Shown here: positions 4,339 to 52,299 of the stretch, piece after piece
How positions within the stretch are numbered: position 1 is the stretch's first letter
How the letters are laid out: each line of letters starts with the position of its first letter
Assembly: GCA_035539855.1 (NCBI GenBank)
Contig: DATLHO010000017.1
Span: forward strand, 13,291 to 77,290
DNA: 64,000 nt
Reading direction: 5' to 3'
Source of the DNA: Candidatus Kapaibacterium sp.
GTDB lineage: Bacteria; Bacteroidota; Ignavibacteria; OLB7
Notes under the pieces: generated by a model
Told to the model about the DNA's origin: nothing
The model's database searches: none
What the model saw: the letters and a program-made list of their open reading frames with translations, nothing else
Made by a program: the position numbers and the translations under genes

Positions 4339-7300
4339 GTGCACCAGACCAATCGCATGCGCACCGTACGTCCGCTCCTCCTGCTCCTGATTCTCGCGAC
4401 GACCATGCCCGCGCTCGCCCAGCGCCTGACGATCGCGCGACTCGACACGTCGAAGTATCCCACGATCACCGCGCTCGTCTATCCGCTCGACCGCGACGGC
4501 AGGCTCATCGAGGGACTCGACGAGGGAGACTTCCGCGTGCTCGAGAACGGCTCGCGTCGCGAGATCATTTCGATGCGCTGCTCGCCGCCACCGGCCGAGC
4601 AACCGCTGAGCTCGGTGCTCGCGATCGACGTCTCCGGCTCGATGGCCCACGGCGGTCGCGGCGGCGCACCGAACATGGAGCTCGCGCGCGCGGCCGCGGG
4701 CGCATGGATCGACGGACTGCCCGAGGGATCGGAGTCGGCGCTGACGATCTTCGATCACGGCAGCATGATCGTCCAGGACTTCACGAGCGATCGCGACATG
4801 CTCCGCGCCGGCGTGCTCGCGCTGACGCCCAACGGCGGCACCAACTACGACGCCGGCCTGCTGAAGCCTCCGTCGGGCGCGCTCGCGATCGCTGCGAAGG
4901 GCGCCAGTCGAAAGGTCGTGATCTTCCTCACCGACGGACGCGGTCGCGGCAGCGAGCGCGAGATCGTCGACGAGGCGCAGCGCATCGGCGCGACGATCTT
5001 CTGCGTGACGCTCGGAATGCCCGCGCCCGAGGTGCTCGTCAACATCGCGCGGCGCACCGGCGGCGAGGCCTACGAGAACGTGAGCTCGCTCGAGGAGGCG
5101 CGCGCGGTCTATCGTGCGATCCTCTTTCGAGCAAGCGGCGGCGATCCGTGCGAGATCACGTGGCGCAGCCTTCCGGCCTGCACCGTCGAGCGCGAGCTCT
5201 CGATAGAGATACCGTCGAGCGGCTTGAGCGCGACCGACGAGTACGAGGCGCCCGCGAGCTCGGTCGCGCGGCTCGACATCGAGCCGCCGGCGGTGAGCTT
5301 CGGCATGATGACCGCGGGATCGTCGCGCGAGATGACGGTGACGTTGACCGCGGTCAACCGCGACGTCACCGTCTCGAGCATCGCGCCGCTCGGTGCGACC
5401 GGCGGCTTCTCGCTCGTCGGAGCGTCGGCGCCGTTCACGCTGCGCAGCGGCGAGCGCCGCGCGCTGACGGTGCGCTTCGACGCGCCCGACTCGCTGTACC
5501 ACTTCGCACGCTGGCGCATCGACAACGACGCGTGCTTCGGCGGATCGCTCTTCGCCTCCGCCGGCATCGGTAATCCTCCGGCGCCGTCGATCCGCGTCGT
5601 GCATCCCAACGGCGGCGAGCGACTGCACGCCGGTGAGATCGCGGAGATCCTCTGGGACGGCGTGCGTCCGAGCGACACGGTGCGCATCGACTACAGCACC
5701 GACGCGGGCACGACGTGGCGTCCGGTCGCGTCGCGCGCGGGCGGACTCGCGCATCGCTGGCGCGTGCCGGCGACGCCGAGCGAGCGCTGCCTGATGCGCA
5801 TCGCCCAAGTGCCGCCCGGACCCTCGACGCGACGCGACGCTCTGCAGTACGTCGGACCCGGCGACTGGGTGATCGCGTCGGCGTTCAGTCCCGATGGCCG
5901 CCGCGTCGCCGCCGCGAGCTGGGACGGCACGGCGAGCATCTGGGACGTCGCGACCGGACGACGACTGCAGCGGCTCGTTGCCGGATCGAACCCGGCGAGC
6001 GGTGGCCGCGCGTCGCGCGTCTACCACGTCGAGTTCTCCGCCGACGGATCGCGCGTGCTCACCGCCGACGAAGGCAGCGCGGTGCGCGTGTGGGACGTCG
6101 CCAGCGGCCGGCCCGTCAGGACCTTCGACGCGAGCCGCGTCTACAACAAGCCGAACTCCGACAAGGCGGGGGAGGGCGATGTCACTCCCGAGCGCGTTCT
6201 CTCACCCGACGGACGGCGTGTCGCGCTGATGTTCAACTACGGTCGCGTGCAGTATGCAAGTCCGGCGGTGTTCGACGTCGACAGCGGGCGGCTGCTCTTC
6301 GAGATCCCGCAGCCCGCGGGCGTGCACTACCGCGACGTGACGTGGAGTCCCGACGGCGCGACGATCGCGGTCAGCGGCAGCGACAGCACCGTGACGATCC
6401 GGCGCGTTCCCACGGGCGAGGTCGTGCGCACGATCGCGGTCGGAGGCGAGGCCGAGGGAGCGACGTGGTCGCCCGACGGATCGCTGATCGCGACGCTCTC
6501 GCGCGAGGATCGCGGCATGGCCGACGTCTGGAACGTGCGCACGGGCGAGAAGGTCGTCGAGGTTCCGTTCGCATCGCACGGCCACCCGCGCGCGCTCTTC
6601 CATCCCGACGGATCTCGCCTGCTCGTCTGGGGCTACACCTCGACGCCGGGACCGCGGCTCGTCGATCTCTCGGGCGCCGTCGTGCAGGAGTACGATCAGG
6701 ACGGCGAGGGCTCCGTCGGCTACGCGACGTTCACTGCCGACGGGCGCTATGTCGCGACATCCAACGGATACACCATCAAGGTCTACGACACCGAGCAGGG
6801 GACGATCCTCAACGAGATCGAGATCGACGCGCAGGCATCGCACGCGGCGTTCTCGCCCGACGGCACGCGCATCGCCGGCGCGCTCGGCGACACGCTCGGC
6901 ATCTGGCCGTCGAACCGCATGGGACTGCAGCAGGATGTCTCCGACTCGCTCTGGGCGATCGTCGTCGAGACGAAGCCCGTGGCGATCGACGTGGACTTCG
7001 GGCGCCGCGCGGTCGGCGTGCCGGCGGACTCGGTCGTCGAGATGTACATCCGCAACGACGGCACGCGCGCGATGACCGTCGAGTCGATCCGCTTCGGCGG
7101 CGCCTCGGCGCGCGAGTACTCGCTCGTCAGCGGAATCCCTCCGTTCGCGGTCGGACCCGGCGAGGCACGCGCGGTCGAGTTCGAGTTCACGCCGGCGCGC
7201 GTTGGTCCGCGTCGTGCCTCGGTCGTCATCGAGGCCGGCGGCACAACGCTCGAGAAGGTCATCAGGGGCGAGGGCGTCGAGCCGCAACTGCGACTCGGGC

Positions 7301-8292: not shown

Positions 8293-8330
8293 GGGGAGGG
8301 CTCATCTTCCCACCCCAGTGAGCGCGCCCC

Positions 8331-9016
8331 TGTCATCCCCAGAGGGGATCTTTCTTTGGGTGCGCCTCGCCGCATGTGGCGATAGGGCCACTGCGAATTC
8401 TTCTTTCGCGGCAGCCGCATGCGGCCGCATGCCGCTGCCCTCGCACAACCACACCGACCCACATGCGGTAGTCGCCTCGAAAGAAAGTTCCCCTTCGGGG
8501 ATGACAGAGACGCGCTGTACAGGGTCGAGGCGACGAAGCGCGCATAGCGCGCATCGTCGCCTCGACATCCCGGAAGCTCCCGCCTCTGTCATCCCCAACA
8601 GGGGATCTTTCTTTGGGTGCGCATCACCGTATGTGGCGATAGGGCCAATGCGAATTCTTCTTTCGCGGCAGCCGCATGCGGCTGCCCTCGCACTACCACA
8701 CCGACCCACATGCGGCAGTCGCATCGAAAGAAAGTTCCCCTTCGGGGATGACAGAGAGGCGCTGTTCAAAGTCGAGGCGACGAAGCGCGCCACGCGCGCA
8801 TCGTCGCCTCGACATCCCAGAAGCTCCCGCCCTTGTCATCCCCGGAGGGGATCTTTCTTAGGCTGCGCATCACCGCATGTGGCGAAAGGGCCACAGCGAA
8901 TTCTTCTTTCGCGGCAGCCGCTTGCCGCCGCATGCAGCCGCCCTCGCACTACCACACCGACCCACAAGCGGCAGTCGCACAGTAAGAGAGTTCCCCTTCG
9001 GGGATGACAGAGACGC
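8331..9016. repeat. Three tandem copies (~256, ~247 and ~183 bp) of a highly structured palindromic repeat
   Basis: Copies start at 8331, 8587 and 8834, each with TGTCATCCCC. Each holds a ~175-bp imperfect palindrome running from TGTCATCCCCNNNGGGGATCTTTCTTT to GAAAGAAAGTTCCCCTTCGGGGATGACAGA. The palindrome is centred on GGCAGCCGCATGCGGCTGCC (perfect in copy 2, 8667-8686). Copies 1 and 2 add a ~75-bp linker with a 13-bp-stem hairpin (8524-8566, 8771-8813). Confidence 0.9.
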
Positions 9017-29775: not shown

Positions 29776-30004
29776 AACACAACGGCAGCCGACCGGAACC
29801 GACGAGACAAGCATCGCTGGCATCCCAGCCAACAACAAAAAACAAATAACCAATACCCGTTACCGAACCCCTTCTCCGGGCACGTCAATCCCAACGCTCG
29901 ATCACATACTCCCCCGCCTCACAGGCCTTCGCGAGACTCGCGGCGACCGTGCGCGCGCGCTCGGAGCGCTGCGCTACGACAGCCGCACCGTCGCTGCCGG
30001 CGAC

Positions 30005-31420
30005 GTGTTCGTCGCGATCAACGGACGCGATGACCACGGGCTCGAGTATGTCGGCGACGCGCTCGATCGCGGAGCGACGACGCTCATCATCGATGCGCCG
30101 GAGAGCCTCGACGCCGCAACGCTCGCGCGCGAGGACGTCACGACGATCATCGTCGACGATGCGCGCGTCGCGATGGCGCAGATGGCGATCGCCATGCACG
30201 GCGACCCGTCGCGCCGCGTGAAGCTCTACGGCGTCACGGGAACCAATGGAAAGACCACGACGACCTGGGTCCTGCGCCAACTGCTCGAGGCGGTCGGCGA
30301 GCGGGTCGGGGTCATCGGAACGCTCGGCGCGATGGTCGATACGATCGTCCCCACCGGCTACACGACGCCGGAGTCGCCCGAGCTGCTGACAATCCTCAAC
30401 ACGATGGCCACCGAGGGCTGCACCGCGGTCGCCATGGAAGTCTCCTCGCACGCACTCGCCCTCCACCGCGTCGACGGACTCGGTTTTGCCGGCGCGATCT
30501 TCACAAACCTGACGCAGGATCACCTCGATTTTCATGATTCAATCGAATCCTACCGTGACGCGAAGAAGCTTCTCTTCGACCGACTCGACGCAGATCGACC
30601 AGCAGTGGTCAATGTCGACGACGTACACGGACGAGCGATGGTTCGTGACAGCCATGCTCGAGTACTCCGGTTTGGATCAGCTGCTAATGCTGACGCACTC
30701 GTCACTGGAGTTCGATCTACAGCCGACGGCTCCGCCTGGAGTCTGAAGCTCGGCCCCTCCCTCGGCTCGGCGCAGCTCGAGCTGCGCATGCCGCTGGTGG
30801 GCCGGTTCAATGTCTGGAACGTCACGGCCGCTCTACTGCTCGCGCTCGCCGAGGGCCATGACCGCGATCGACTCGTCGAGGCCGTCGCCTCGCTGCGCCC
30901 GGTGCCCGGACGCATGGAGTCGATCCGACTCGACAACGGCGCGACCGCCGTCGTCGACTACGCGCACACTCCCGACGCGCTCGACAACGTCCTGTCGACC
31001 TTGCAGGAGGTTCGAACCGACGGCGGGAGAATCATCACGGTCTTCGGCTGCGGAGGCGACCGTGACCGCACGAAGCGACCGCAGATGGGCGCGATCGCCG
31101 CGGCTGGATCGGATCGGGTCATCGTGACCTCCGACAATCCGCGCAGCGAGGATCCGGCGGCGATCATCGACGCGATCGTCGCGGGCATCGACCGTCGCGA
31201 CGGCGTCCAGTCGATCGTCGATCGTCGCGAGGCGATCATCGCTGCGCTCGAGAGCGCGCGCAGCGGCGACATCGTTCTGATCGCCGGCAAGGGACACGAG
31301 ACGGACCAGATCGTCGGCGACGAGCGTCGGCACTTCGACGATCGCGAGGTCGTGCGCGAGTGGAACCGACCGTTCGCCGCGCACGACGGTCACGACAGGG
31401 AGGACGTGGCGGCCGCATGA
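30005..31420 (+). CDS. murE: UDP-N-acetylmuramoyl-L-alanyl-D-glutamate--2,6-diaminopimelate ligase
   Basis: GVTGTNGKTTT, the Mur ligase central and C domains, and a DNPR motif. The coordinates follow the ORF-track GTG 30005. MurE-like sequence continues in frame upstream to about 29888 with no ATG, GTG or TTG (see finding). Confidence 0.9.
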   Translation: MFVAINGRDDHGLEYVGDALDRGATTLIIDAPESLDAATLAREDVTTIIVDDARVAMAQMAIAMHGDPSRRVKLYGVTGTNGKTTTTWVLRQLLEAVGERVGVIGTLGAMVDTIVPTGYTTPESPELLTILNTMATEGCTAVAMEVSSHALALHRVDGLGFAGAIFTNLTQDHLDFHDSIESYRDAKKLLFDRLDADRPAVVNVDDVHGRAMVRDSHARVLRFGSAANADALVTGVRSTADGSAWSLKLGPSLGSAQLELRMPLVGRFNVWNVTAALLLALAEGHDRDRLVEAVASLRPVPGRMESIRLDNGATAVVDYAHTPDALDNVLSTLQEVRTDGGRIITVFGCGGDRDRTKRPQMGAIAAAGSDRVIVTSDNPRSEDPAAIIDAIVAGIDRRDGVQSIVDRREAIIAALESARSGDIVLIAGKGHETDQIVGDERRHFDDREVVREWNRPFAAHDGHDREDVAAA

Positions 31421-32841
31421 GAATCGCATCCATCGGAGACCTGCTGTCGGTGCTGCCGACGGCGCGCCTGGTCGGTTCCGCCGGTGCGAAGCGCCGCGCG
31501 GTCGCCGGCTTCTCGACCGACAGTCGTTCCTTGAAAAAACGGGACCTGTTCATCGCGCTCGTCGGCGAGCGCTTCGACGGTCACAGCTTCGTCGCGCACG
31601 CCGACGGCGCGTCCGCGGCGCTGGTCAACGAGTCGTGGCTCGCCGAGCATCCCGACGTCGTCGCGCCGGTGCCGCTGATCGCGGTCGAGGACACGCTCCG
31701 CGCCTACGGCGACATTGCCGCGGCGCACCGCGCGTCGCTTTCGATTCCGATCGTCGCGATCGCCGGCAGCAACGGAAAGACGACGACCAAGGAGCTCGTC
31801 GCCGATCTGCTGGCCACGCGCTACACCGTGCTGCGCACCGAGGGTAATCTCAACAACCTCATCGGCGTGCCCGCGACGATCCTCAGGATCACGCACGAGC
31901 ACACCGCGGCGGTGATCGAGATCGGAACGAACACGCCGGGCGAGATCGCACGGCTCTGCGAGATCCTTCGGCCGACGCACGGCGTGATCACGAACATCGG
32001 CGCGGAGCACCTCGAGCTGCTCGGCTCGCTCGAGGGAGTGGCGGAGGAGGAGGGCGCGCTCTATCGAAGCCTGGCGGAGACCAGCGGGACGGCGTTCGTC
32101 AACCTCGACGATCCGTACCTGGCGAAGATGGGCCGCTCGCTTCCGCTGACGGTGACCTATGGACGCTCGGCCCGCGCGGATGTTCGCGGACGCATCGGCC
32201 GTCTCGACGCCGACGGCGCGCCGTCGATCGAGATCACCGACCGCCGGCGCCCCGACGCCCGGCCGATCGCCGTGCAGTTGCGCACGCCGGGTGTGCACAC
32301 CGCGGTCAACGCGCTGGCGGCATCGGCGATCGCGCTGTCGATGAAGGTGACGCCGACGCGCGTCGCGCGTACGCTCGCGGCGTTCCAGCCGCGCGCCTAC
32401 GCTGCCGGCTACGCGCGGCTCGCGGTCGTTCGTACGCCGCTCGGCGCGACCGTGCTCAACGACACGTACAACGCGAACCCCGATTCGGTGCTCGCCGCGC
32501 TCGAGACGCTCCGCGCGATGAAGCCCGCGCGCGGCGGACGACGCATCGTGGTGCTCGGGGAGATGAAGGAGCTCGGCGCGAGCTCGGAGAGCGAGCATGC
32601 GCGCATGGGGCGGGAGATCGTCGAGCGTGGCGGCGTCGAGCGCGCGCTGTTCTACGGCGAGGCGATGCGCAACGCGCATCACGCGATCGACGGCGCCAGG
32701 GGAATCGACTCCAGCTTCTTCGACGACAAGCGCCAGCTCATCGACACGCTTCTGCGCGAGCTCACGGCGCACGATCTGGTGCTCGTCAAGGGCTCGCGCG
32801 GAATGAAGATGGAGGAGGTCGTGGCAGCGCTGCTCGGATGA
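31417..32841 (+). CDS. murF: UDP-N-acetylmuramoyl-tripeptide--D-alanyl-D-alanine ligase
   Basis: STDSRSLKKRDLFIAL, GSNGKTTTKE and NDTYNANPDS. An ATGA overlap couples it to the murE stop. Confidence 0.9.
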   Translation: MRIASIGDLLSVLPTARLVGSAGAKRRAVAGFSTDSRSLKKRDLFIALVGERFDGHSFVAHADGASAALVNESWLAEHPDVVAPVPLIAVEDTLRAYGDIAAAHRASLSIPIVAIAGSNGKTTTKELVADLLATRYTVLRTEGNLNNLIGVPATILRITHEHTAAVIEIGTNTPGEIARLCEILRPTHGVITNIGAEHLELLGSLEGVAEEEGALYRSLAETSGTAFVNLDDPYLAKMGRSLPLTVTYGRSARADVRGRIGRLDADGAPSIEITDRRRPDARPIAVQLRTPGVHTAVNALAASAIALSMKVTPTRVARTLAAFQPRAYAAGYARLAVVRTPLGATVLNDTYNANPDSVLAALETLRAMKPARGGRRIVVLGEMKELGASSESEHARMGREIVERGGVERALFYGEAMRNAHHAIDGARGIDSSFFDDKRQLIDTLLRELTAHDLVLVKGSRGMKMEEVVAALLG

Positions 32842-32868
32842 TCCGCAATCCGAACTTCGAAATCCGAA

Positions 32869-33993
32869 ATGCTCTATTACCTGGCCCAGTATCTCGAATC
32901 AGCGTTCCAGCCGCCGGGGTTCGGACTGTTCCGCTTCGTGACCTTTCGCGCGGCCGGAGCGGCGATCACGGCGCTCATGATCGCGCTGTTCATCGGGCCG
33001 CGGATCATCCTCGCGCTGCGCCGCCGCCACATCGGCGAGCAGGGCAAGCGCGAGGCACCGAAGAGCCACATGGCCAAGGCCGGCACCCCGACGATGGGCG
33101 GCCTGATCGTCCTGCTCTCGCTGATCGTGCCGTCTCTGCTGTGGTGCGACGTCAAGAGCGCGTACGTGATCCTCGCGGTGGTCGTGACGGTGTTCCTCGG
33201 CGGTGTGGGATTTCTCGATGACTACCTCAAGGTCATCCGCAAGCTGCCGAAGGGATTGATCGGACGCTACAAGATCATCGGCCAGCTCGCGATCGGATTC
33301 GTGCTCGGCGGCGTGATCTACTTCTTCCCGGAATGGTTCCCGGGGAATTTCGAGCGGCTGCACACGTACACGACGGTGCCGTTCGTGAAGGACCTCGTGA
33401 TCGACTTCGGATGGATGTACATCCCGATCACCATGTTCGTCGTCACCGCGACCTCGAACGCCGTCAACCTCACCGACGGACTCGACGGACTGGCGATCGG
33501 AACGGTGAGCATCGTCGCGCTGACCCTCGCGGTGATCACGTACATCTCGGGCAACGCGGTCGCGGCGGAGTACCTGAACATCCCGTACCTGCGCGGCGCC
33601 GAAGAGCTCGCAATCTTCTGCGCGGCGCTGGTCGGAGCCGGACTCGGCTTCCTCTGGTACAACTCCTATCCCGCCCAGATCTTCATGGGGGATACAGGCT
33701 CTCTGGCGCTTGGCGGCGCGATCGCGGCAATCATGATCCTCGTCAAGAAGGAGTACATGATCCCGGTCCTCGGCGGTGTCTTCTTCGCCGAGTCGCTCTC
33801 GGTCATGGCGCAGGTCGCATACTTCAAGTACACGCGCAAGCGCTTCGGTGAGGGACGCAGAATCTTCCGACGCGCGCCCCTGCATCATCACTTCGAAGAG
33901 CGGGGATGGCCCGAAGCGAAGATCGTCACGCGGTTCTACATCGTGGCGATTCTGTTGGCGATAGTGGGTGTTGTGACGTTGAAGATCAGATGA
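32869..33993 (+). CDS. mraY: Phospho-N-acetylmuramoyl-pentapeptide transferase
   Basis: KAGTPTMGG, NAVNLTDGLDGLA and MGDTGSLALGG. Confidence 0.95.
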   Translation: MLYYLAQYLESAFQPPGFGLFRFVTFRAAGAAITALMIALFIGPRIILALRRRHIGEQGKREAPKSHMAKAGTPTMGGLIVLLSLIVPSLLWCDVKSAYVILAVVVTVFLGGVGFLDDYLKVIRKLPKGLIGRYKIIGQLAIGFVLGGVIYFFPEWFPGNFERLHTYTTVPFVKDLVIDFGWMYIPITMFVVTATSNAVNLTDGLDGLAIGTVSIVALTLAVITYISGNAVAAEYLNIPYLRGAEELAIFCAALVGAGLGFLWYNSYPAQIFMGDTGSLALGGAIAAIMILVKKEYMIPVLGGVFFAESLSVMAQVAYFKYTRKRFGEGRRIFRRAPLHHHFEERGWPEAKIVTRFYIVAILLAIVGVVTLKIR

Positions 33994-34162
33994 GATGTCA
34001 GCTGTCTGACTTGTCAGATGTCAGATGTCAGATGTTAGATGTCACATACCAGGAAGTGTCTGGTGTCAGATGTCAGATGTTAGATGTCACAAACCAGGAA
34101 AGACCTCCGACTCCATCCGTCTCTTGTATGTGACATCTGACCTCTAACATCTGACCTCTAAC
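33994..34162 (+). repeat. Bipartite inverted heptamer-array element filling the mraY-murD spacer
   Basis: Units in 7-nt register run from 33994 (GATGTCA GCTGTCT GACTTGT CAGATGT x3 TAGATGT CACATAC). The module is repeated at 34067-34094. An inverse array TGACATC TGACCTC TAACATC TGACCTC TAAC lies at 34131-34162 and ends at the murD ATG. Confidence 0.85.
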
Positions 34163-35530
34163 ATGCCTACTCACACCGTTATCGGCTCCGCCCGCTCCGG
34201 CCTCGCGGCCGTGCGGTTGCTGCGTGCCGAGGGTGCGACGGTGTTTGTGAGTGATAGTCGTCCGGCGGTGGATGCTGCTGAGTCGATTGCGGCGCTCGAG
34301 GAGATGGGGGTCGAGTACGAGTTTGGAGGACACACCGACCGGGTGCTCGAGGCGGCGACGATCGTGTTGTCGCCGGGAGTGCCCGACACGATTCCGATCG
34401 TGCGCAAGGCGGTGGAGCGGGGGCTGGCGGTGGTCGGCGAGATCGAGATCGCCGCTGCGCGCTGTCGCGCGCCGATCGTCGCGATCACGGGCACCAACGG
34501 CAAGACGACGACGACCGAGCTCGCCGGGCACATCTTCCGCACCGCCGGCCGACGGACGTTCGTCGCCGGCAACGTCGGACTCGCGTTCAGCGAGATCGCC
34601 GCGGAGGCCGACGAGACGAGCGTCGTCGTGCTCGAGGTCAGTTCGTTCCAGCTCGAGCACATCGTCGAGTTCCGACCGCGCGTCGCGATCGTGACGAACG
34701 TGACGCCGGATCACATGGATCGCTACGCGAGCTTCGAGGCGTACCTCGCGGCGAAGCTCCGAATCGCGGAGAACCAGACGAGCGACGACACGCTCATCGT
34801 CGGCGTCGACAGCGCGCCGTTGCGCGAGGCGCCGTTTGCGGGCGGCGCGCACATGCTCGCCTTCTCACAGCTCGAGGAGGTCGCCAGCGGCGCCTGGCTG
34901 AAGGACGGGACCGTGATGCTCCGGCTGCACCCGACGCTCGAGCCGGTCGCGCTCATCGCGGCCGACGAGATCCGCATCCGCGGACCGCACAATCTCTACA
35001 ACGCGATGGCCGCGTCGCTCGCGGCCGCCGCGATGGGTGTCGAGCCCGAGACGATCGCGCGCTCGCTGCGCGAGTTCCCGGGCGTCGCGCACCGGCTCGA
35101 GCCGGTCGGCGATGTCGACGGCGTCGCCTACGTCAACGACTCGAAGGCGACCAACGTCGACTCGGTCCGCTACGCGCTCGCGAGCTTCGATCGGCCGATC
35201 GTGCTGATCGCCGGCGGCGTCAGCAAGCATGCGCCGTACGACGCGATCCTCGATCTCGTCCGCGAGCGCGTCAAGGCGGTGGTGCTCGTCGGCGAGGCGG
35301 CCGACGAGATGCAGAAGGCCTTCGAGCCGCTCGTGCCGGTGCACCGGGCGGGCATGAGTCTCGAGGACGCGGTGGCGCAGGCCCGCCGGATCGCCGAGCC
35401 CGGCGACGTCGTCCTTCTGTCGCCGGCCTGCGCAAGCTTCGACATGTTCAGGAACTACGAGCACCGCGGCGATCGTTTCCGCGAGCTCGTTCAGTCGATG
35501 GCGACGGCGCCCGCAGGCGCATCGTCATAG
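34163..35530 (+). CDS. murD: UDP-N-acetylmuramoylalanine--D-glutamate ligase
   Basis: ITGTNGKTTTT, DSKATNVDS and Mur ligase domains. Confidence 0.95.
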   Translation: MPTHTVIGSARSGLAAVRLLRAEGATVFVSDSRPAVDAAESIAALEEMGVEYEFGGHTDRVLEAATIVLSPGVPDTIPIVRKAVERGLAVVGEIEIAAARCRAPIVAITGTNGKTTTTELAGHIFRTAGRRTFVAGNVGLAFSEIAAEADETSVVVLEVSSFQLEHIVEFRPRVAIVTNVTPDHMDRYASFEAYLAAKLRIAENQTSDDTLIVGVDSAPLREAPFAGGAHMLAFSQLEEVASGAWLKDGTVMLRLHPTLEPVALIAADEIRIRGPHNLYNAMAASLAAAAMGVEPETIARSLREFPGVAHRLEPVGDVDGVAYVNDSKATNVDSVRYALASFDRPIVLIAGGVSKHAPYDAILDLVRERVKAVVLVGEAADEMQKAFEPLVPVHRAGMSLEDAVAQARRIAEPGDVVLLSPACASFDMFRNYEHRGDRFRELVQSMATAPAGASS

Positions 35531-37857: not shown

Positions 37858-38406
37858 ATGAAAGAAGAGCGCTTCCGACATCGCCTCGACATCTTCTACC
37901 TGGCCACGATCGGCTACGGTGTGACCCTGCTCGCCTACGCCGCGATCAAGGGCCTCTGGATCGACGGGCGATTCGAGGTGGTGTGGAAGGAGGATCCGAT
38001 CGTCTACCTGCTGGCGCTCTGTGCCGTGCTCTCGGCGATGGCGCTCGTGGTCTCGGCGATTCTCAACCGCAAGCTCATCGTGCGCGAGGACGAGCTGGTT
38101 CTGCGCACGCGATTCGCCGAGCGCGTGCTGCGCGCCGCCGATGTCGAGTGGATCGCGTTTCGATCCGAGCCGCGCGCCGCTGCGCGCGCCGGGCGTGCGT
38201 GGCCGGTCGCGCGACTGAAGCTCAAGGGCGAGCGGCGCCGTCGGAGGATCCGACCGGGAAGCTTCGAGCGCAGTGAGGAGCTCGTGCGCACGCTGCGCGA
38301 CTGGGCGCGCGCCAACAACGTCGAGCTGCTGATCCGACGCCGCGTCAAGGCTCAGGAGGCCGATGGCGCGGGACCGGCGATCGATCCGCAGAGCTCCGAC
38401 CGATAA
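37858..38406 (+). CDS. Hypothetical two-TM membrane protein inserted between murG and murC
   Basis: Two N-terminal hydrophobic helices, then a ~90-aa soluble part (LIVREDELVLRT...VEWIAF) and a basic tail. A bacterial PH-like fold is suspected by eye only. Confidence 0.55.
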   Translation: MKEERFRHRLDIFYLATIGYGVTLLAYAAIKGLWIDGRFEVVWKEDPIVYLLALCAVLSAMALVVSAILNRKLIVREDELVLRTRFAERVLRAADVEWIAFRSEPRAAARAGRAWPVARLKLKGERRRRRIRPGSFERSEELVRTLRDWARANNVELLIRRRVKAQEADGAGPAIDPQSSDR

Positions 38407-39903: not shown

Positions 39904-40986
39904 GTGCACGATAGCGCGCGCATCGCAAAGCGCACAGCGGCGCTCACATCAGAGCGCGCAGAAGTGCGCACGTGGCGCGGCAGCAGAGATTCGAAACCCA
40001 GATTCGCACGACGCTCCGTGATCAACCTCGACGACATTCGCCGGAGCTTCAGCGGGCGCATCGCGATCAGCGAGCCTCTCGAGCGCTACACGACGTTCCG
40101 CATCGGCGGACCGGCCGACATCTATCTGGAACCGAGCGACAAGCACGATGCGGTGGCGCTCATCGCTCACCTACGTCGCGAGAACGTCCCGTTCTTTCTC
40201 ATGGGCAACGGCAGCAATCTCCTCGTCGCCGACGAAGGGATCCGCGGCGCGGTCGTCAACCTCGAGCACGGGTTCAACTACGTGAGCGCCGACGACGACG
40301 GAGTGATCACCGCCGGAGCGGGGATCAGGCTCGCGAAGTTCGTCGACTTCTGCATCGGCCGCGGCTGTCGCGGCGCCGAGATGCTCGCGGGCATTCCCGG
40401 CACGCTCGGCGGCGGCATCATCATGAACGCCGGCGCCTACGGCGGAGAGATCTCCGATCACCTGCTGGCCGTCGAGGTCATCCGCGGCGAGGAGCTCGTC
40501 CGGGTGTCGAAGGAAATGGGAGGCTTCGCCTACCGGACCTCGGGGCTCGCGCGCGACGTGGTGCTCGAAGCGTCGTTCCGCTTCCCGGAGGGCTCGCCAG
40601 AGGAGATGAAGACGATCCGTCGCGAGACGATGCTCAAGCGCAATCGATCGCAGCCGGTGCAGTTCCCGAACGCGGGGAGCATCTTCAAGAACCCTCCGGG
40701 TGACCATGCCGCGCGACTGATCGAGGCATGTGGACTCAAGGGGCGGCGTGTCGGCGGCGCCGAGATCAGCGAGCTGCACGCGAACTTCATCATCAACGTC
40801 GACGGCGCCAGCGCGCGCGACGTGCTCGCGCTGGCGGCGATCGCCCGCGGCGAGGTGGCGCGGCGCTTCGGCGTCGAGCTCGAGCTGGAGATCAAGCCGA
40901 TCGGCTTCGACGCCGACGACCTGGTGGCATTAACCAAGGAGCTGCCCGATGCGAGCGCGCAGGAAACTCGTCCGCAAGCCCCGTGA
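39904..40986 (+). CDS. murB: UDP-N-acetylenolpyruvoylglucosamine reductase
   Basis: YTTFRIGGPA, GNGSNLLV, GIPGTLGG and GSIFKNP. The true start may be the in-frame GTG at 40018. Confidence 0.85.
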   Translation: MHDSARIAKRTAALTSERAEVRTWRGSRDSKPRFARRSVINLDDIRRSFSGRIAISEPLERYTTFRIGGPADIYLEPSDKHDAVALIAHLRRENVPFFLMGNGSNLLVADEGIRGAVVNLEHGFNYVSADDDGVITAGAGIRLAKFVDFCIGRGCRGAEMLAGIPGTLGGGIIMNAGAYGGEISDHLLAVEVIRGEELVRVSKEMGGFAYRTSGLARDVVLEASFRFPEGSPEEMKTIRRETMLKRNRSQPVQFPNAGSIFKNPPGDHAARLIEACGLKGRRVGGAEISELHANFIINVDGASARDVLALAAIARGEVARRFGVELELEIKPIGFDADDLVALTKELPDASAQETRPQAP

Positions 40987-41767
40987 TCCGCAGGAGCGGC
41001 GCGAGGAGGCGCGGCGGTTCGCCTCGAAAGTCTCGAAGATCATCCTGGCGCTCGCCGCGGTGCTGACGCTGATCGTCGTTGCCAACCGTTGGGGAGCGCG
41101 CGAGACGCTCGAGCAGGTGCGGATCGTCGGGCGCGTCGTGCTCGACTCCTCCGAGATTATGGAGCGCGCGGGGATCGGGCCGCACGTGTCGCTGCGCAGT
41201 CTCGACCTGCGCCAGGTCGAGACGAGGATCGCCTCGCACCCGTTCCTTTCGCGCGTCGCGGTCTACCGTGACAGCCGCGGGACCCTCGTCGTCGAGGTGA
41301 CCGAGCGCACGCCGCTCGCGCTGGCGGTGCTCGGCGGCTCGCCGGTCTACCTCGACTCGCAGGCGGTGGCACTGCCGTACCGCTTCAGCCGCGCGACGCT
41401 CGACGTGCCGCTGGTGCGCGGCATCGAGCGGGTCGATACGAGCGAGGCGGGCTCGCGCAAGCCCTCGACGGTGCTCGATTCGGCGCTCGCGCTCGAGTCG
41501 CTCGGCGTCGTCCGCGCGCTGCGAGACTTCGACGAATCGCTCTACCGGCAGATCTCCGAGATCGTGCGCGGCCTCGACGGAGCCTACACGCTCGTCAGCG
41601 CCGACGGCGCCATCCCGATCCACGCCGGCACGGCCGCCGACATCCCGGCGCGCCTCCCGAAGCTCGACCTGTTCATGCGCACCGCACTCGCGGCGCGCCC
41701 CGGCGCCCGCCCCCGCTACGTCGACCTCCGATGGCGCGGCCAGGTGGTGGTGAAGTGGGAGGGATGA
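40949..41767 (+). CDS. ftsQ: Cell division protein FtsQ (POTRA domain)
   Basis: A basic N-terminus, a single TM helix and a POTRA-like segment (IVGRVVLDSSEI...LVVEVTERTPLA) at the expected dcw position. Confidence 0.8.
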   Translation: MRARRKLVRKPRDPQERREEARRFASKVSKIILALAAVLTLIVVANRWGARETLEQVRIVGRVVLDSSEIMERAGIGPHVSLRSLDLRQVETRIASHPFLSRVAVYRDSRGTLVVEVTERTPLALAVLGGSPVYLDSQAVALPYRFSRATLDVPLVRGIERVDTSEAGSRKPSTVLDSALALESLGVVRALRDFDESLYRQISEIVRGLDGAYTLVSADGAIPIHAGTAADIPARLPKLDLFMRTALAARPGARPRYVDLRWRGQVVVKWEG

Positions 41768-41802
41768 TCCCGAATACGAATGACCTCCGAAGCAACCCGC
41801 AT

Positions 41803-41846
41803 CGTGACATCTGACTTCTGACATCTGACATCTGACATCCGACCCC
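41803..41846 (+). repeat. Heptamer half-array (TGACATC-type units) abutting the ftsA start codon
   Basis: TGACATC TGACTTC TGACATC TGACATC TGACATC CGACCCC in register from 41805, ending 2 nt before the ATG at 41849. Confidence 0.8.
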
Positions 41847-41848
41847 CG

Positions 41849-43162
41849 ATGGCCAAGGCGCAACACACTCCCGCAGCAGTTCCCGACAACCGGCAGATCG
41901 TTGTCGGCCTCGATATCGGCACGAGCAAGGTCTGTGCGATCGTCGCGGAGCGGCACCAGGAATCTCCCGAGGAGATTCACGTGCTCGGCATCGGCCACGC
42001 TCCCTCCGACGGACTCAATCGCGGGGTCGTCGTGAACATCGAGAAGACGGTGCGCTCGATCGAGCGTGCGGTCGAGCAGGCGCAGCAGCAGTCGGGCGTG
42101 CAGGTGCGCTCGGTGTCGGTTGGTATCGCCGGCGATCACGTGCAATCGTTCCCCAGCCGCGGCGTCGTGACGATCTCAAATCCCGAGCGCGTCGTCCGCC
42201 AGCAGGACGTCGACCGGCTGATCGAGGACTCGCAGCGGGTGCTCATGCCGTCGGATCGGCGGATCCTCCACGTGATCCCGCAGGAGTACATCATCGACGG
42301 GCAGGATGGGATTTTCGATCCCGTCGGCATGTCGGGCATTCGCATGGAGGCGAATGTCCACATCATCACCGGGCTGGTGACCGCGGCGCAGAACATCTAC
42401 CGCTGCGTCGAGCGTGCCGGCCTGGTCGTCGAGGACATCGTGCTCGAGCCGCTGGCCAGCGCCAACGCGGTGCTCGACGAGGAGGAGAAGGAGATCGGCG
42501 TGGCGTTGATCGACATCGGCGGCGGCACGACCGACATCGCGGTCTACGAGGACAAGACGATCCGGCACACCTCGGTCGTCGGCATCGCCGGGCGCATGGT
42601 CACCGACGACATCCGTCGCGGACTCGGCGTCATCGGCGAGCAGGCCGAGCGCATCAAGCGCGAGTACGGCTACGCGCTCGCGTCGATGATCCTCAACGAC
42701 GAGGTCTTCATGATCCCCGGCATCGGCGGACGCAAGCCGATGGAGATCTCGAAGCTCATGCTCGCGCAGATCATCCAGCCCCGCATGGAGGAGATCCTGG
42801 AGTTCGCGCTGATGGAGCTGAAGAAATCAGGATATCTGCGCCAGCTCTCCGCCGGCGTCGTGCTCACCGGTGGCGGCGCGCTGTTGCGCGGCTCCGTCGA
42901 GCTCGCGCAGGAGGTACTGGGCATGCCGGTGAAGCTCGGCATTCCGTCCGGCTTCGGCGGCTCGGGCCTTGCGCCCGAGGTCGAGTCCCCCATCTACGCC
43001 ACGGCCGTCGGCCTGGTGATGCACGGGCTCGGCCGCGACGACACCATTGCACTGTCGATCGAGGACGATGCCAGCGTCCCCGGCGACGGCTCGACTCCGC
43101 GGGGCGACGGATCGCGCAGCTCGATCCTCTCGCGCATGCGGAAGTTCTTCGACGAATTCTAA
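41849..43162 (+). CDS. ftsA: Cell division protein FtsA
   Basis: Actin-like ATPase motifs (GLDIGTSKVCA, DIGGGTTD) at the expected dcw position. Confidence 0.95.
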   Translation: MAKAQHTPAAVPDNRQIVVGLDIGTSKVCAIVAERHQESPEEIHVLGIGHAPSDGLNRGVVVNIEKTVRSIERAVEQAQQQSGVQVRSVSVGIAGDHVQSFPSRGVVTISNPERVVRQQDVDRLIEDSQRVLMPSDRRILHVIPQEYIIDGQDGIFDPVGMSGIRMEANVHIITGLVTAAQNIYRCVERAGLVVEDIVLEPLASANAVLDEEEKEIGVALIDIGGGTTDIAVYEDKTIRHTSVVGIAGRMVTDDIRRGLGVIGEQAERIKREYGYALASMILNDEVFMIPGIGGRKPMEISKLMLAQIIQPRMEEILEFALMELKKSGYLRQLSAGVVLTGGGALLRGSVELAQEVLGMPVKLGIPSGFGGSGLAPEVESPIYATAVGLVMHGLGRDDTIALSIEDDASVPGDGSTPRGDGSRSSILSRMRKFFDEF

Positions 43163-50468: not shown

Positions 50469-51170
50469 TCAGGCGCTCACCTCCTTGACCTTGATCCCGG
50501 TGATGCGCGCGGGCGTTCGCGGCATTTCTCCCTGATATCCCGTCGATTCGATCCTCATGAGCGATTCCTGACCGTCGCGGACGCGGCCGATGATCGTGTA
50601 GAGGTACTGAAGCTGCGCCGCGGCGCCGTCGCCGAGCACGATGAAGAATTGGCTGGAGTTCGTATTGGGACCACTGTTGGCCATCGCCACCATGCCGGTT
50701 GCGTAGCCGAGCTTTGCCGAGGGCTTGGCCGCGTCGAGCTCATCGTCGAACGTGCCGCCGTAGATCGATTCACCGCCCTGCCCCCAGAATTCCCGCTTCG
50801 ACTCGTCCTTCGACTGCGGATCGCCGGCCTGTGCGACGAATCCGGGCACGACGCGATGGAAGGCGATCCCGTCATAGAACCCCTTCTTCGCGAGCCCGAC
50901 GAAGTTGTTGACGGCCTTCGGCGCATCCTTGCCGAAGAGCTCGATGACGACCTCGCCCGAGTCTGTCGCGATCGTCGCGACGTGCGTCACGACGGGACCC
51001 GCCGTGTCCGCGACCTGGACGCTGTCGCCGGAGCCCATCGCTCCGGACGCTCCTGGGGCGAGCGTCGTCGTATCGATGCCACCGGCCGAGGGAGTCTCCG
51101 AGGTGCCGCCGCCGCAGGCGACGAGGATGAAGGCGAGGAGGAGGTAGAGGTGTTGGTATGGGCGGTTCAT
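50469..51170 (-). CDS. Cyclophilin-type peptidyl-prolyl cis-trans isomerase, lipoprotein
   Basis: Lipobox LLAFILVACGG. FHRVVPGFVAQAGDP and MANSGPNTNSSQFFI. Confidence 0.9.
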   Translation of the reverse strand: MNRPYQHLYLLLAFILVACGGGTSETPSAGGIDTTTLAPGASGAMGSGDSVQVADTAGPVVTHVATIATDSGEVVIELFGKDAPKAVNNFVGLAKKGFYDGIAFHRVVPGFVAQAGDPQSKDESKREFWGQGGESIYGGTFDDELDAAKPSAKLGYATGMVAMANSGPNTNSSQFFIVLGDGAAAQLQYLYTIIGRVRDGQESLMRIESTGYQGEMPRTPARITGIKVKEVSA

Positions 51171-51177
51171 GTTGGTT

Positions 51178-51456
51178 TGTCAGATGATAGATGTCAGATG
51201 TTAGATGTCACGAGGCGAAGAGGTTTCGGTGAGCCAGGCCCCCTTCCATGAGCGGCGCCCCGTCATCCTTGACGAGCGGAGCGAGTCGGGGATCTGTCTT
51301 CGGCGGTAGCCGTGCCGAACGGTACCGCTACCGCGGAGGATAGATCTCCGCCGCGCTTCGCTTGCGAAGATGACGGGGGCGCATTCATTCCGGGTAGAGT
51401 GCCTCGTGACATTTGACATCTGACATCTGACATCGAACATCTGACATCTGACATCA
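51178..51456 (-). repeat. Bipartite inverted heptamer-array element filling the uppP-cyclophilin spacer, with a nested palindrome
   Basis: The array at 51407-51455 holds 7 units in perfect register (TGACATT, TGACATC x3, GAACATC, TGACATC x2), and the last unit contains the uppP stop. The inverse array at 51181-51215 holds 4 units plus CACGAGG. Read on the - strand this gives stop-(GATGTCA)n...(ACATCTN)n-CAAACCAAC-ATG. A 122-bp palindrome lies at 51258-51379. Confidence 0.85.
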
Positions 51457-52299
51457 AGCCCCCAACCACCCCACCGCCACCGCAATCAAAATCCCCCCGC
51501 CCAGCAACAGCCGATAGGCGATGAACAGCCGCGTCGAGTGCGTCCGCAGATACCGCAGGAGGAACGCGATCGAGGCATACCCGCTGACTGCGGAGACCGC
51601 CGTGGCGACGACGAGCGTGAGCGTGCCGGCGCCGTCGAGGTGGCCGACGACCTTGAAGAATTCGAGCAGTCCGCTCGCGGCGATTGCGGGGATCGACAGC
51701 AGGAAGCTGAAGCGCGCGGCCGCCTCGCGGGTGAGCCCCGCGAAGAGTCCGGCGGTCAGCGTCGTGCCGGAGCGCGAGGAGCCAGGGATCAGCGCGATCG
51801 CCTGGGCCGCGCCGATGAACACGGCGTCGCGGGGCGTGAGCTGCTCGATCGGTCGGTTGAAGCGGGCGACGCGCTCGGCGATCTCCAGGAGAATCGCCAG
51901 GACGACGAGGCTGGTTCCGATCACGACGAGGTTCTTCGTCAACGCGCCCTCGATGACGTCCTTGAACGCGAGTCCGATGATGACGATGGGGATGGTGCCG
52001 AGCGCGATCATCCAGCCGCTTCGCGATTCGAACGTCTGCTCGCGGACGGGGACGCGACGGAGATTCTCGCGAACGAACGCGCCGACGATGGCGACGATGT
52101 CGCGACTGAAGTAGACCAGCACCGCGACGAGCGTCCCGAGCTGCACGATCGCTATGAACTCCGTCCATCGTTCCGGCCGGGTCGGATCGATCAGGCCCAT
52201 TGCTCGGCCGACGAGCGTCAGATGGGCGGTCGAGCTGATGGGAAGGAACTCGCTCAGACCCTGGATCAGGCCGAGCACGATTGCCTGGACGATCGTCAA
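51454..52299 (-). CDS. uppP: Undecaprenyl-diphosphate phosphatase
   Basis: LGLIQGLSEFLPISSTAHL and the PGSSRSG motif. Eight TM helices. Confidence 0.95.
   Translation of the reverse strand: MTIVQAIVLGLIQGLSEFLPISSTAHLTLVGRAMGLIDPTRPERWTEFIAIVQLGTLVAVLVYFSRDIVAIVGAFVRENLRRVPVREQTFESRSGWMIALGTIPIVIIGLAFKDVIEGALTKNLVVIGTSLVVLAILLEIAERVARFNRPIEQLTPRDAVFIGAAQAIALIPGSSRSGTTLTAGLFAGLTREAAARFSFLLSIPAIAASGLLEFFKVVGHLDGAGTLTLVVATAVSAVSGYASIAFLLRYLRTHSTRLFIAYRLLLGGGILIAVAVGWLGA

Follow-up and report, generated by a model that had tools for sequence, protein, structure and literature searches.

An apparently recent, strain-variable insert of inverted heptamer arrays between mraY and murD in a Candidatus Kapaibacterium genome

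Introduction

Why should the spacer between two cell-wall synthesis genes consist largely of tandem copies of a 7-nt unit, running one way after the first gene and the opposite way before the second? The DNA considered here, hereafter the window, is a stretch of 64 000 nt of Candidatus Kapaibacterium sp. (GenBank assembly GCA_035539855.1, contig DATLHO010000017.1, positions 13 291 to 77 290 of the forward strand), a bacterium of the Fibrobacteres–Chlorobi–Bacteroidetes (FCB) group with 67% GC. Within its division and cell wall (dcw) cluster, the mraY–murD spacer (169 nt, 33994–34162, read directly from the sequence) carries arrays of GATGTCA-type units on the mraY side and of TGACATC-type units on the murD side. 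Heptamer repeats of bacteria have been on record since 1990 but still lack an agreed function, and G-quadruplexes, translational regulator sites and slippage have been proposed separately to account for them. An initial annotation of this spacer had considered an RNA hairpin or protein-binding array dedicated to the mraY/murD junction, or the ends of a miniature inverted-repeat transposable element (MITE). To judge from sequence comparison, the element belongs instead to a class of inverted bacterial heptanucleotide arrays located between co-directional genes, and is a recently acquired, strain-variable insert, not a conserved part of the dcw operon.

Results and discussion

An inverted pair of heptamer arrays joins a stop codon to a start codon

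Genes were assigned with NCBIfam, mraY to 32869–33993 (E = 3e-115) and murD to 34163–35530 (6e-128), and on the dcw side murF (31360–32841), ftsQ (40949–41767) and ftsA (41849–43162) were also recognized. The first heptamer directly adjoins the mraY stop codon TGA (33991–33993, + strand), which follows an AGA codon in the window, the corresponding ends being CGA TAG or CGA TAA in relatives. From this stop onwards, the strict 7-nt register described by the initial annotation is confirmed. The first module of the 5′ arm (33994–34056, +) reads GATGTCA GCTGTCT GACTTGT (CAGATGT)3 TAGATGT CACATAC CAGGAAG; it contains ATG in several frames, and its part 34012–34052 pairs with the 3′ arm. A second copy of a 45-nt module (34057–34100, +), ending in (CAGATGT)2 TAGATGT CACAAAC CAGGAA, is an alternative pairing partner of that arm. 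The duplication noticed at first sight is borne out, as Tandem Repeats Finder (TRF) reports a period of 45 with 2.0 copies in 34012–34100 (93% matches; consensus (CAGATGT)n-TAGATGT-CACAnAC-CAGGAA), besides a period of 7 with 13.1 copies in 33993–34089 and a period of 14 with 2.3 copies in 34133–34164. A non-heptameric interior, AGACCTCCGACTCCATCCGTCTCTTG (34101–34126, +), forms the loop. The 3′ arm (34127–34162, +), TATG TGACATC TGACCTC TAACATC TGACCTC TAAC, then runs up to the murD start codon (34163–34165, +), exactly as first read; it is poor in G (4 G in 36 nt), has stops in all three frames and contains no Shine-Dalgarno (SD) motif. The spacer had been described as built entirely of heptamers, which holds for most of it but not for about a quarter, namely roughly 34093–34126 and the short linker CCAGGAAGTGTCTGG.

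As first read, the spacer is a single long and imperfect inverted repeat that extends from a stop to a start codon, with arms of 41 nt (34012–34052 and 34123–34163) that are 85% complementary. Folded as RNA, 33985–34170 reaches −69.1 kcal/mol versus −50.7 ± 4.5 for shuffled controls (z = −4.09), so that the comparison initially suggested supports a predicted RNA hairpin, whose stem covers the entire murD initiation region. The two-unit motif CAGATGTCAGATGT, with at most two mismatches, has 23 matches in the window versus 0.20 expected (approx. 100-fold), a number equalled in none of 100 shuffles, and all 23 are confined to 33992–34160, 41807–41841 and 51181–51457.

A scan of 33700–34400 found neither a sigma-70-like promoter nor an intrinsic terminator; in place of a GC-rich hairpin followed by a U-tract, the 3′ arm goes straight into the murD ATG. 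Rfam detected no family at gathering thresholds in the window, and 33900–34260 gave chance-level matches only. The exclusion of a CRISPR also stands, the units being contiguous and 7 nt long versus repeats of 24–48 nt with unique spacers of similar size.

Absence in relatives and variation among strains

The closest named matches to MurD come from Ca. Kapabacteria, Bacteroidota and Rhodothermus (53–63% identity). The comparison of syntenic mraY–murD spacers, which had been put forward as a check on a regulated junction, turned out against it: arrays are lacking from the spacers of relatives with 85% (L119 and L120, 18 nt), 77% (L121, 19 nt) and 69% (L122, 35 nt) MurD identity. At 72% identity (L262), the spacer is long (172 nt), GC-rich and non-repetitive, and at 79% (P0003) a length of 60 nt is known from gene coordinates only.

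Strains were compared as contigs falling within one 90% MurD identity cluster (L203–L206). The L203 spacer is identical to that of the window, the L204 spacer (124 nt) has one 45-nt module fewer, and the L206 contig ends inside the array; the loop AGACCTCCGACTCCATCCGTCTCTTG is the same in these three strains. L205 keeps the 3′ arm (GTGACATC TGACCTC TAACATC TGACATC TAAC-ATG), predicted to remain unpaired, behind a complete hairpin of another unit, (TTATTGG)n...(CCAATAA)n, which replaces the 5′ part, and its mraY stop is TAG instead of TGA. The variation in length and copy number that characterizes heptamer simple sequence repeats (SSRs) is thus present, through the module loss in L204, the swap in L205 and the absence of arrays in relatives whose spacer could be read.

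Two further observations concern these strains. At position 34153, in the last full unit of the 3′ arm, near-identical strains carry three different bases: the window has TGACCTC, whereas L205 has TGACATC and L206 has TGACGTC. Moreover, TTATTGG/GTATTGG...CCAATAA constitutes a second family of heptamer hairpins at dcw junctions, with sites at 2415–2590 in L205, 1339–1497 in L119, 1267–1410 and 154–177 in L135, and 7365–7462 in L166. In L119, the 85% relative, TATTGGT/TTACTGG-type heptamers occupy a 159-nt murF–mraY spacer; in L135, an unrelated metagenomic lineage, a TTATTGG/CCAATAA hairpin lies within the mraY–murD spacer itself, and L166 is another unrelated dcw locus.

Other heptamer sites and repeats of the window

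The initial annotation had reported a recurrence of the element at 51178–51456, which is correct, but had overlooked a third site between ftsQ and ftsA, where five TGACATC units are found at 41805–41839. The latter is an orphan array of the 3′ type (41802–41843, +; GTG ACATC TGACTTC (TGACATC)3 CGAC) that stops 9 nt (CGACCCCCG) upstream of the ftsA ATG, and contains stop codons in each frame but no start codon; the ftsA leader that includes it folds less than shuffled sequences (z = +1.1). Both orphan arrays, in L205 and before ftsA, start with GTGACATC, the inner boundary of a hairpin arm, and by this shared boundary look like remnants of full hairpins.

The second full element sits on the minus strand between uppP (51454–52299, −) and a peptidyl-prolyl isomerase gene (PPIase; 50469–51170, −), both assigned with NCBIfam. 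Its 5′ arm (51401–51456, −) reads TGATGTCA GATGTCA GATGTTC GATGTCA GATGTCA GATGTCA AATGTCAC, the uppP stop codon (51454–51456) falling within the first unit. The 3′ arm (51171–51216, −), GCCTCGTGACATC TAACATC TGACATC TATCATC TGACAAACCAAC, is followed by the PPIase ATG (51168–51170). TRF detects both arms with a period of 7 (51178–51210 and 51407–51455), and 39 nt of them (51178–51216 and 51401–51439) are 85% complementary. Folding of the minus strand of 51165–51465 gives a z-score of −8.41, due in part to the GC-rich interior. This interior cargo (51217–51400, −) is a palindromic repeat, rich in GC (..GCGCCCCGTCATCC...GGGGATCTGTCTTC..), and is akin to the units of a 247-bp tandem repeat at 8321–9016. 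The latter (2.7 copies, 87% matches, with internal palindromes TGTCATCCCCnGAGGGGATCTTTCTT) fills an intergenic region of about 1 kb, and a unit akin to its palindromes is consequently nested inside the second heptamer hairpin (51217–51400).

Taken together, the window sites display the features expected of heptamer SSRs: head-to-tail 7-nt units, at least three in number and far above chance (4.7–13.1 copies in TRF arrays); a position between co-directional genes at all three sites, touching or nearly touching the stop and/or the start; and inverted pairs with 85% complementary arms of 41 and 39 nt around interiors of 26–184 nt. The strand that bears stops always faces the start codon from a few nucleotides upstream, at 4 nt (TAAC) for murD, 9 nt for ftsA and about 8 nt for PPIase, with no SD motif. 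Indeed, the murD, mraY, ftsA and PPIase leaders are all C/A-rich and SD-less.

Several neighbouring spacers deserve mention in their own right. The 27-nt murF–mraY spacer (32841–32870) consists of four units of a different heptamer, from TGA to ATG (ATCCGCA ATCCGAA CTTCGAA ATCCGAA), and a similar stretch, TCCCGAA TACGAA...TCCGAAG, follows the ftsQ stop (41767–41795). The ftsI–murE spacer (29776–30004) is long (approx. 230 nt, taking the GTG called at 30005 as the murE start) and strongly C/A-rich, with AACAAAT-like heptamers at 29834–29855; this tract would suit a genome in which leaders generally tend to be poor in G. Lastly, an open reading frame (ORF) of 182 aa without a Pfam match (37858–38406, between murG and murC) is kept at the equivalent position in L203 (4025–4573), L122 (13712–14221) and L262 (4113–4646).

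One unit and one order across bacterial phyla

Exact (TGACATC)3 was searched with one genome per species and retrieved from at least 118 loci in many phyla. Among the matches listed, hosts include Blastocatellia/Pyrinomonadaceae, Saprospiraceae and other Bacteroidota, Xanthobacteraceae, Rhodospirillales, Planctomycetota, Verrucomicrobiota, Gemmatimonadota, Actinomycetota and the candidate phyla radiation (CPR). Among these same matches, a long ORF starts within 40 nt after 50 of 148 TGACATC arrays versus 21 in the reverse orientation (p = 8e-4), and a GATGTCA array follows a stop in 56 cases versus 33, figures that depend on crude ORF calls and on loci chosen for containing the motif. When both orientations occur within 600 nt, the order is GATGTCA...TGACATC in all 14 pairs listed, and in 16 of 16 once the two window elements are added (p = 3e-5). 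This order is strand-symmetric, both strands reading alike.

Some hairpins fill the whole spacer between co-directional genes, with gaps to the upstream and downstream gene of 7 and 4 nt in L001, 6 and 20 nt in L017, 11 and 8 nt in L076, and 12 and 2 nt in L080. The recurrence of the stop-array...array-start layout that had been noticed within the window extends to other phyla (L001, L076, L080) and to other units, L147 even displaying it twice within one dcw cluster. At its first site, the mraZ TAG is followed by (GGTTTCA)n...(AAACCTG)n, 6 nt and the rsmH ATG; at the second, the end of rsmH and its TAG lie inside (GGCTGTT)n, which is followed by an ORF of the PF05635 family, (AACAGCC)n, 4 nt and the ftsL ATG.

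A sample unbiased with respect to repeats was obtained from 0.97 Mb of dcw loci picked by a metagenome scan with MurD (best MurD 60% identical to that of the window). There, TRF detected many period-7 arrays, often as inverted pairs of other units (GGTTTCA/AAACCTG, GGCTGTT/AACAGCC, AGTTATG/AACTCAT, GATTGCG/AATCCGC, GGTTGTC/GACAACC), and the G-rich arm came first in 13 of the 13 inverted pairs detected, some of which share an arm.

As regards the anatomy of these elements, no target-site duplication was found at the flanks of 14 hairpins, and the outer ends of the arrays are ragged and decaying. After masking of heptamers, the loops are unrelated in 16 of 17 elements, the exception being a 21-nt match between L019 and L062, two Blastocatellia metagenome-assembled genomes (MAGs), at different flanks. 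Between arm pairs up to 1.2 kb apart, no transposase was detected, and PF05635 was the only type of ORF found there.

In viral contigs, TGACTCA was retrieved from 2 loci versus 11 for TGACATC. TGCAATC had been tried as a control heptamer and was rejected, since it belongs to a related hairpin family, CAGATTG...CAATCTG; hairpins of the form (CAGATTG)n...(CAATCTG)n lie at 1238–1312 in L225 and 3004–3065 in L227, with the CAGAT/ATCTG core of the window unit. Across families, many 5′-arm units contain YAG (CAG or TAG) and 3′ arms contain CTR. The variant CAGATGTTAGATGTCA was also considered as a sign of shared ancestry; it recurs in 5 other loci, a signal too weak for interpretation. As far as could be found, a single unit with a fixed order across phyla has apparently not been described before.

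Heptamer arrays as stems of rRNA intervening sequences and on both sides of PF05635 genes

Another context for these arrays is provided by ribosomal operons. In L095 (Rhodospirillaceae), GATGTCA/TGACATC arrays make up the stem of an intervening sequence (IVS) within the 23S rRNA, in helix 45 by comparison with the Escherichia coli sequence. L012 (Rhodospirillales) contains two such IVSs in a single 23S gene (5835–5930 and 6575–7045, both with heptamer-array stems), one in a helix-45 context and the other, judged by its position, near helix 25. The betaproteobacterium L005 has the arrays in its 16S–23S spacer, where a local hairpin follows the 16S 3′ end and (TGACATC)3 immediately precedes the 23S gene; these arrays (599–620 and 1230–1316) flank two spacer tRNAs.

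The helix-45 IVSs encode a four-helix-bundle protein (PF05635/TIGR02436). In L095, the ATG of this ORF lies inside the GATGTCA array and its TGA inside the TGACATC array; the L095 and L012 proteins are 59% identical, and GATGTCA arms are found on both. Inverted heptamer arrays bracket all five PF05635 genes present in the loci collected for repeats or dcw genes (L147 2726–3242; L001 6353–6786; L085 4380–4930; L095 2457–2880; L012 6575–7045). In 30 PF05635 loci taken from viral contigs irrespective of repeats (L232–L261), and with flanking inverted repeats of score at least 14 and internal period 7 as the criterion, 16 were bracketed versus 0 of 300 random control segments (p = 2e-19), or 13 of 23 when distinct arms are counted, each with its own unit; the bracketing of L254 and L259 was inspected by eye. 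The unit of these brackets differs by lineage, with the G-rich arm first. In L254 (459–535), the 5′-arm module of the PF05635 cassette is tandemly duplicated, (AGTGGAG)4 ... TAGAGTGGAGAGTGGAGAG, mirroring the duplicated 45-nt module of the window. A literature search found no paper tying PF05635 to heptamer arrays; as far as could be found, neither the use of such arrays as rRNA IVS stems nor the general embedding of PF05635 genes in them appears to have been described.

Like these IVSs, the window elements consist of a long stem of terminal inverted repeats around a variable sequence. However, they lie outside 23S helices 9, 25 and 45, as Rfam finds no rRNA in the window, and their loops lack the optional PF05635/TIGR02436 ORF. 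In our preferred reading, the window copies are ORF-less shells of the class that elsewhere forms 23S IVS stems and brackets PF05635 genes.

Origin and possible consequences of the element

The reading that we favour, and for which we see about an even case, is that of a recently acquired, strain-variable, ORF-less and IVS-like palindrome with (GATGTCA)n and (TGACATC)n arms, tolerated in the spacer. The element would be co-transcribed within the dcw operon, given that no promoter-like or terminator-like site was found. Its transcript is predicted to form a stem of about 40 bp, not perfectly paired, with its base beside the mraY stop and the murD start. The two units differ in coding potential, since GATGTCA offers an ATG in each frame but no stop, and TGACATC a TGA in each frame but neither ATG, GTG nor TTG; the 3′-arm unit is free of start codons in 6 of the 6 heptamer families checked. 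The G-poor, stop-rich arm would thus offer murD a clean, insulated leader in either orientation of insertion, the ATG-bearing arm being harmless behind the upstream stop; the opposite order would place the ATG-laden arm before the downstream gene. That the G/T-rich arm comes first and the C/A-rich arm, free of starts and rich in stops, always faces the downstream gene could account at once for why polarity is fixed, why single arrays are biased in orientation and why such inserts survive at stop/start junctions.

As the predicted stem buries the murD initiation region, translation of murD would require that it be opened by ribosomes finishing mraY, or cleaved. RNase III would cut a long double-stranded RNA of this kind, so that mraY and murD would become distinct messages and murD would be preceded, as ftsA is, by a short CA-rich leader without structure. 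By analogy with IVSs built of the same arrays and with the transcript ends reported in Xanthomonas, cleavage by RNase III is the more probable of the two. It could have originated either as a horizontally spread cassette or locally, by slippage and template switching; in both cases, it would be no conserved regulator but an insert, selfish or neutral, that is tolerated and has some modulatory effect on the side. If RNase III does cut these mRNA stems, such inserts would amount to a general and portable route to the post-transcriptional splitting of operons.

Several observations weigh against this reading. Mismatches in 29 hairpins show no RNA-specific bias (24 G·U versus 26 A·C), so that arm pairing may be maintained, or merely created, at the DNA level, and the stems are only about 85–90% complementary. 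Copy-and-paste mobility is unproven because loops are unrelated, except in L019 and L062, and target-site duplications are lacking. No PF05635 homologue was detected in the window with tblastn, and the orientation statistics carry the dependence on ORF calls and locus choice stated above. Lastly, ftsZ and ftsQ have SD-like motifs, which means that the lineage is not uniformly SD-independent; the idea of an SD-less lineage holds only in part.

A wider version of the preferred reading can be put forward tentatively, and we consider it possible but on balance doubtful. The window hairpins would be ORF-less derivatives of mobile ‘IVS cassettes’, i.e. inverted heptamer arrays with or without PF05635, that colonize exposed rRNA helices and operon stop/start junctions across phyla and are processed by RNase III. 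As parts of this same tentative proposal, the fixed polarity would make insertion translationally harmless either way, PF05635 would be the element's own factor, and many heptamer repeats (with the short tandemly repeated repetitive (STRR) sequences, GGGAATC and TAACTGA as candidates) would be footprints of such elements, not slippage products or G-quadruplex signals. The observations on these arrays join two long-standing questions, the nature of heptamer repeats and the origin of rRNA IVSs and ‘IVS proteins’, in a single testable hypothesis.

Among the rival explanations, the one that survives best, although we deem it unlikely, is that of pure simple-sequence DNA, grown in place by slippage and copied in inverted form by intramolecular template switching, with neither mobility nor function, and whose position and polarity would simply be those that selection allows. 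Among the long SSRs of bacteria, heptamers are indeed the most frequent unit (Mrazek 2007, according to the summary in PMC4679880), many different units exist, and copy number is polymorphic among strains; the ragged, decaying array ends, the missing target-site duplications, the unrelated loops and the lack of an excess of G·U over A·C are likewise what such an origin would produce. However, the polymorphism among strains involves a 45-nt module, not single units, and L205 gained, within a cluster of more than 90% MurD identity, a complete hairpin of another unit, both arms and loop, at the very same site, a hairpin type also encountered in the unrelated dcw loci L135 and L166. Slippage in place also sits uneasily with the identity of unit and order in many phyla, and with the related units carried by related PF05635 genes (the GATGTCA arms of L095 and L012).

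We regard as very improbable that the element is an ordinary DNA-level MITE, its arrays serving as terminal inverted repeats for a transposase encoded elsewhere in the genome. The fixed order of the terminal arrays (16 : 0), a size of 60–280 bp, presence or absence among relatives, the nesting with another repeat (51217–51400) and the loop common to two Blastocatellia MAGs would all suit a MITE. Against it, the 14 hairpins have neither target-site duplications nor sharp termini, the interiors of 16 of 17 elements are unrelated, arms differ widely in length, and arm pairs up to 1.2 kb apart enclose no transposase, the only ORF between them being PF05635, which has no known transposase chemistry. 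On these grounds, nothing supports the MITE-like ends of the initial annotation.

It is scarcely credible that the array serves specifically to regulate, in cis, the mraY/murD junction or undecaprenyl-phosphate enzymes by means of its hairpin or of a heptamer-binding protein, for although the hairpin is predicted to sequester the whole murD initiation region from a base adjoining the mraY stop, the two full elements come after MraY and UppP and a protein-binding role has been proposed for TAACTGA arrays (PMC4679880), the arrays are absent from relatives with 69–85% MurD identity whose spacer is readable, the element varies or is replaced among strains, the third site is ftsQ–ftsA, and the same architecture recurs in other phyla at mraZ–rsmH, rsmH–ftsL and unrelated junctions and in rRNA operons, which makes the enzyme link a coincidence. 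Accordingly, the spacer should not be read as a conserved control element of cell-wall synthesis, but as a recent, strain-variable insert.

Comparison with known systems

The repetitive extragenic palindromic (REP) elements of enterobacteria, with their mosaic assemblies (bacterial interspersed mosaic elements, BIMEs), and the RNase III sites found between cistrons in phage T7 are hairpins within one transcript that affect the stability or processing of mRNA segments but do not terminate transcription; the window elements would resemble them in this respect. A REP sequence, however, is one imperfect palindrome some 35 nt long with a link to REP-associated tyrosine transposases (RAYTs), T7 sites are unique sequences, and neither system is made of tandem heptamers. 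Closer in composition, the STRR heptanucleotide sequences of heterocystous cyanobacteria, reportedly described by Mazel et al. in 1990, are intergenic tandem heptamers with several families per genome. They differ in being cyanobacterial and in their units, and the inverted stop-to-start layout lies outside their definition.

IVSs of 23S rRNA are sporadic, horizontally acquired and selfish, have a stem of terminal inverted repeats and are excised by RNase III, as in the example of Coxiella (PMC4990558). The window elements resemble them in a long inverted-repeat stem around variable cargo in presumably transcribed DNA, and the IVS stems of L095 and L012 are the same GATGTCA/TGACATC arrays; the window elements differ in being located in mRNA spacers and in carrying no ORF.

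Contrary to the initial statement that the arrays match no named repeat family, two published systems come near to them, inverted stop/start heptamer arrays in Xanthomonas and Nostoc (PMC4692102) and start-proximal arrays in Beggiatoaceae (PMC4679880). In the latter, MacGregor (2015) described TAACTGA arrays in marine Beggiatoaceae, cyanobacteria and Bacteroidetes, oriented toward start codons from a few nucleotides upstream, usually without a ribosome-binding site (RBS) and with forward-strand stops in all frames; their patchy distribution across phyla suggested horizontal transfer, and protein binding was proposed as a candidate role (PMC4679880). The window arrays share the start-ward orientation, the missing RBS, the stops in all frames and a CTGA core (CATCTGA versus TAACTGA). 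However, TAACTGA arrays are nearly always direct repeats (1 inverted set among 170; PMC4679880), whereas the window arrays have the unit TGACATC and form inverted pairs with long hairpins at two of three sites, which sets them apart from TAACTGA direct repeats.

The closest counterpart was reported by Rehm et al. (2015), with the heptamers GGGAATC in Xanthomonas and GGGGA(C/T)T in Nostoc (PMC4692102). Xanthomonas genomes each contain 70–75 closely spaced inverted pairs, often of about 4 or more units and favouring co-directional ORFs, with the G-rich strand at most 50 bp past a stop or overlapping it and the complement at most 50 bp before the next ORF (PMC4692102). The heptamers of both genera are transcribed, Xanthomonas transcripts often start or stop within repeats, and repeat length varies between related genomes, which the authors read in terms of G-quadruplexes; the paper gives no link to rRNA IVSs or PF05635 (PMC4692102). 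Tandem heptamers, inverted pairs, stop-side and start-side placement, co-directional ORFs and length variation are thus common to both systems, and the polarity with the G-rich arm first agrees with the 13 of 13 pairs of the unbiased dcw sample. By contrast, the window unit GATGTCA is a different one, in an FCB-group host, and neither it nor TGACATC contains a G-run, which rules out a G-quadruplex function here. The window therefore adds to a known architecture a new heptamer unit in a new lineage, and the rules of position and polarity are seen to hold for a unit that is unable to form a quadruplex.

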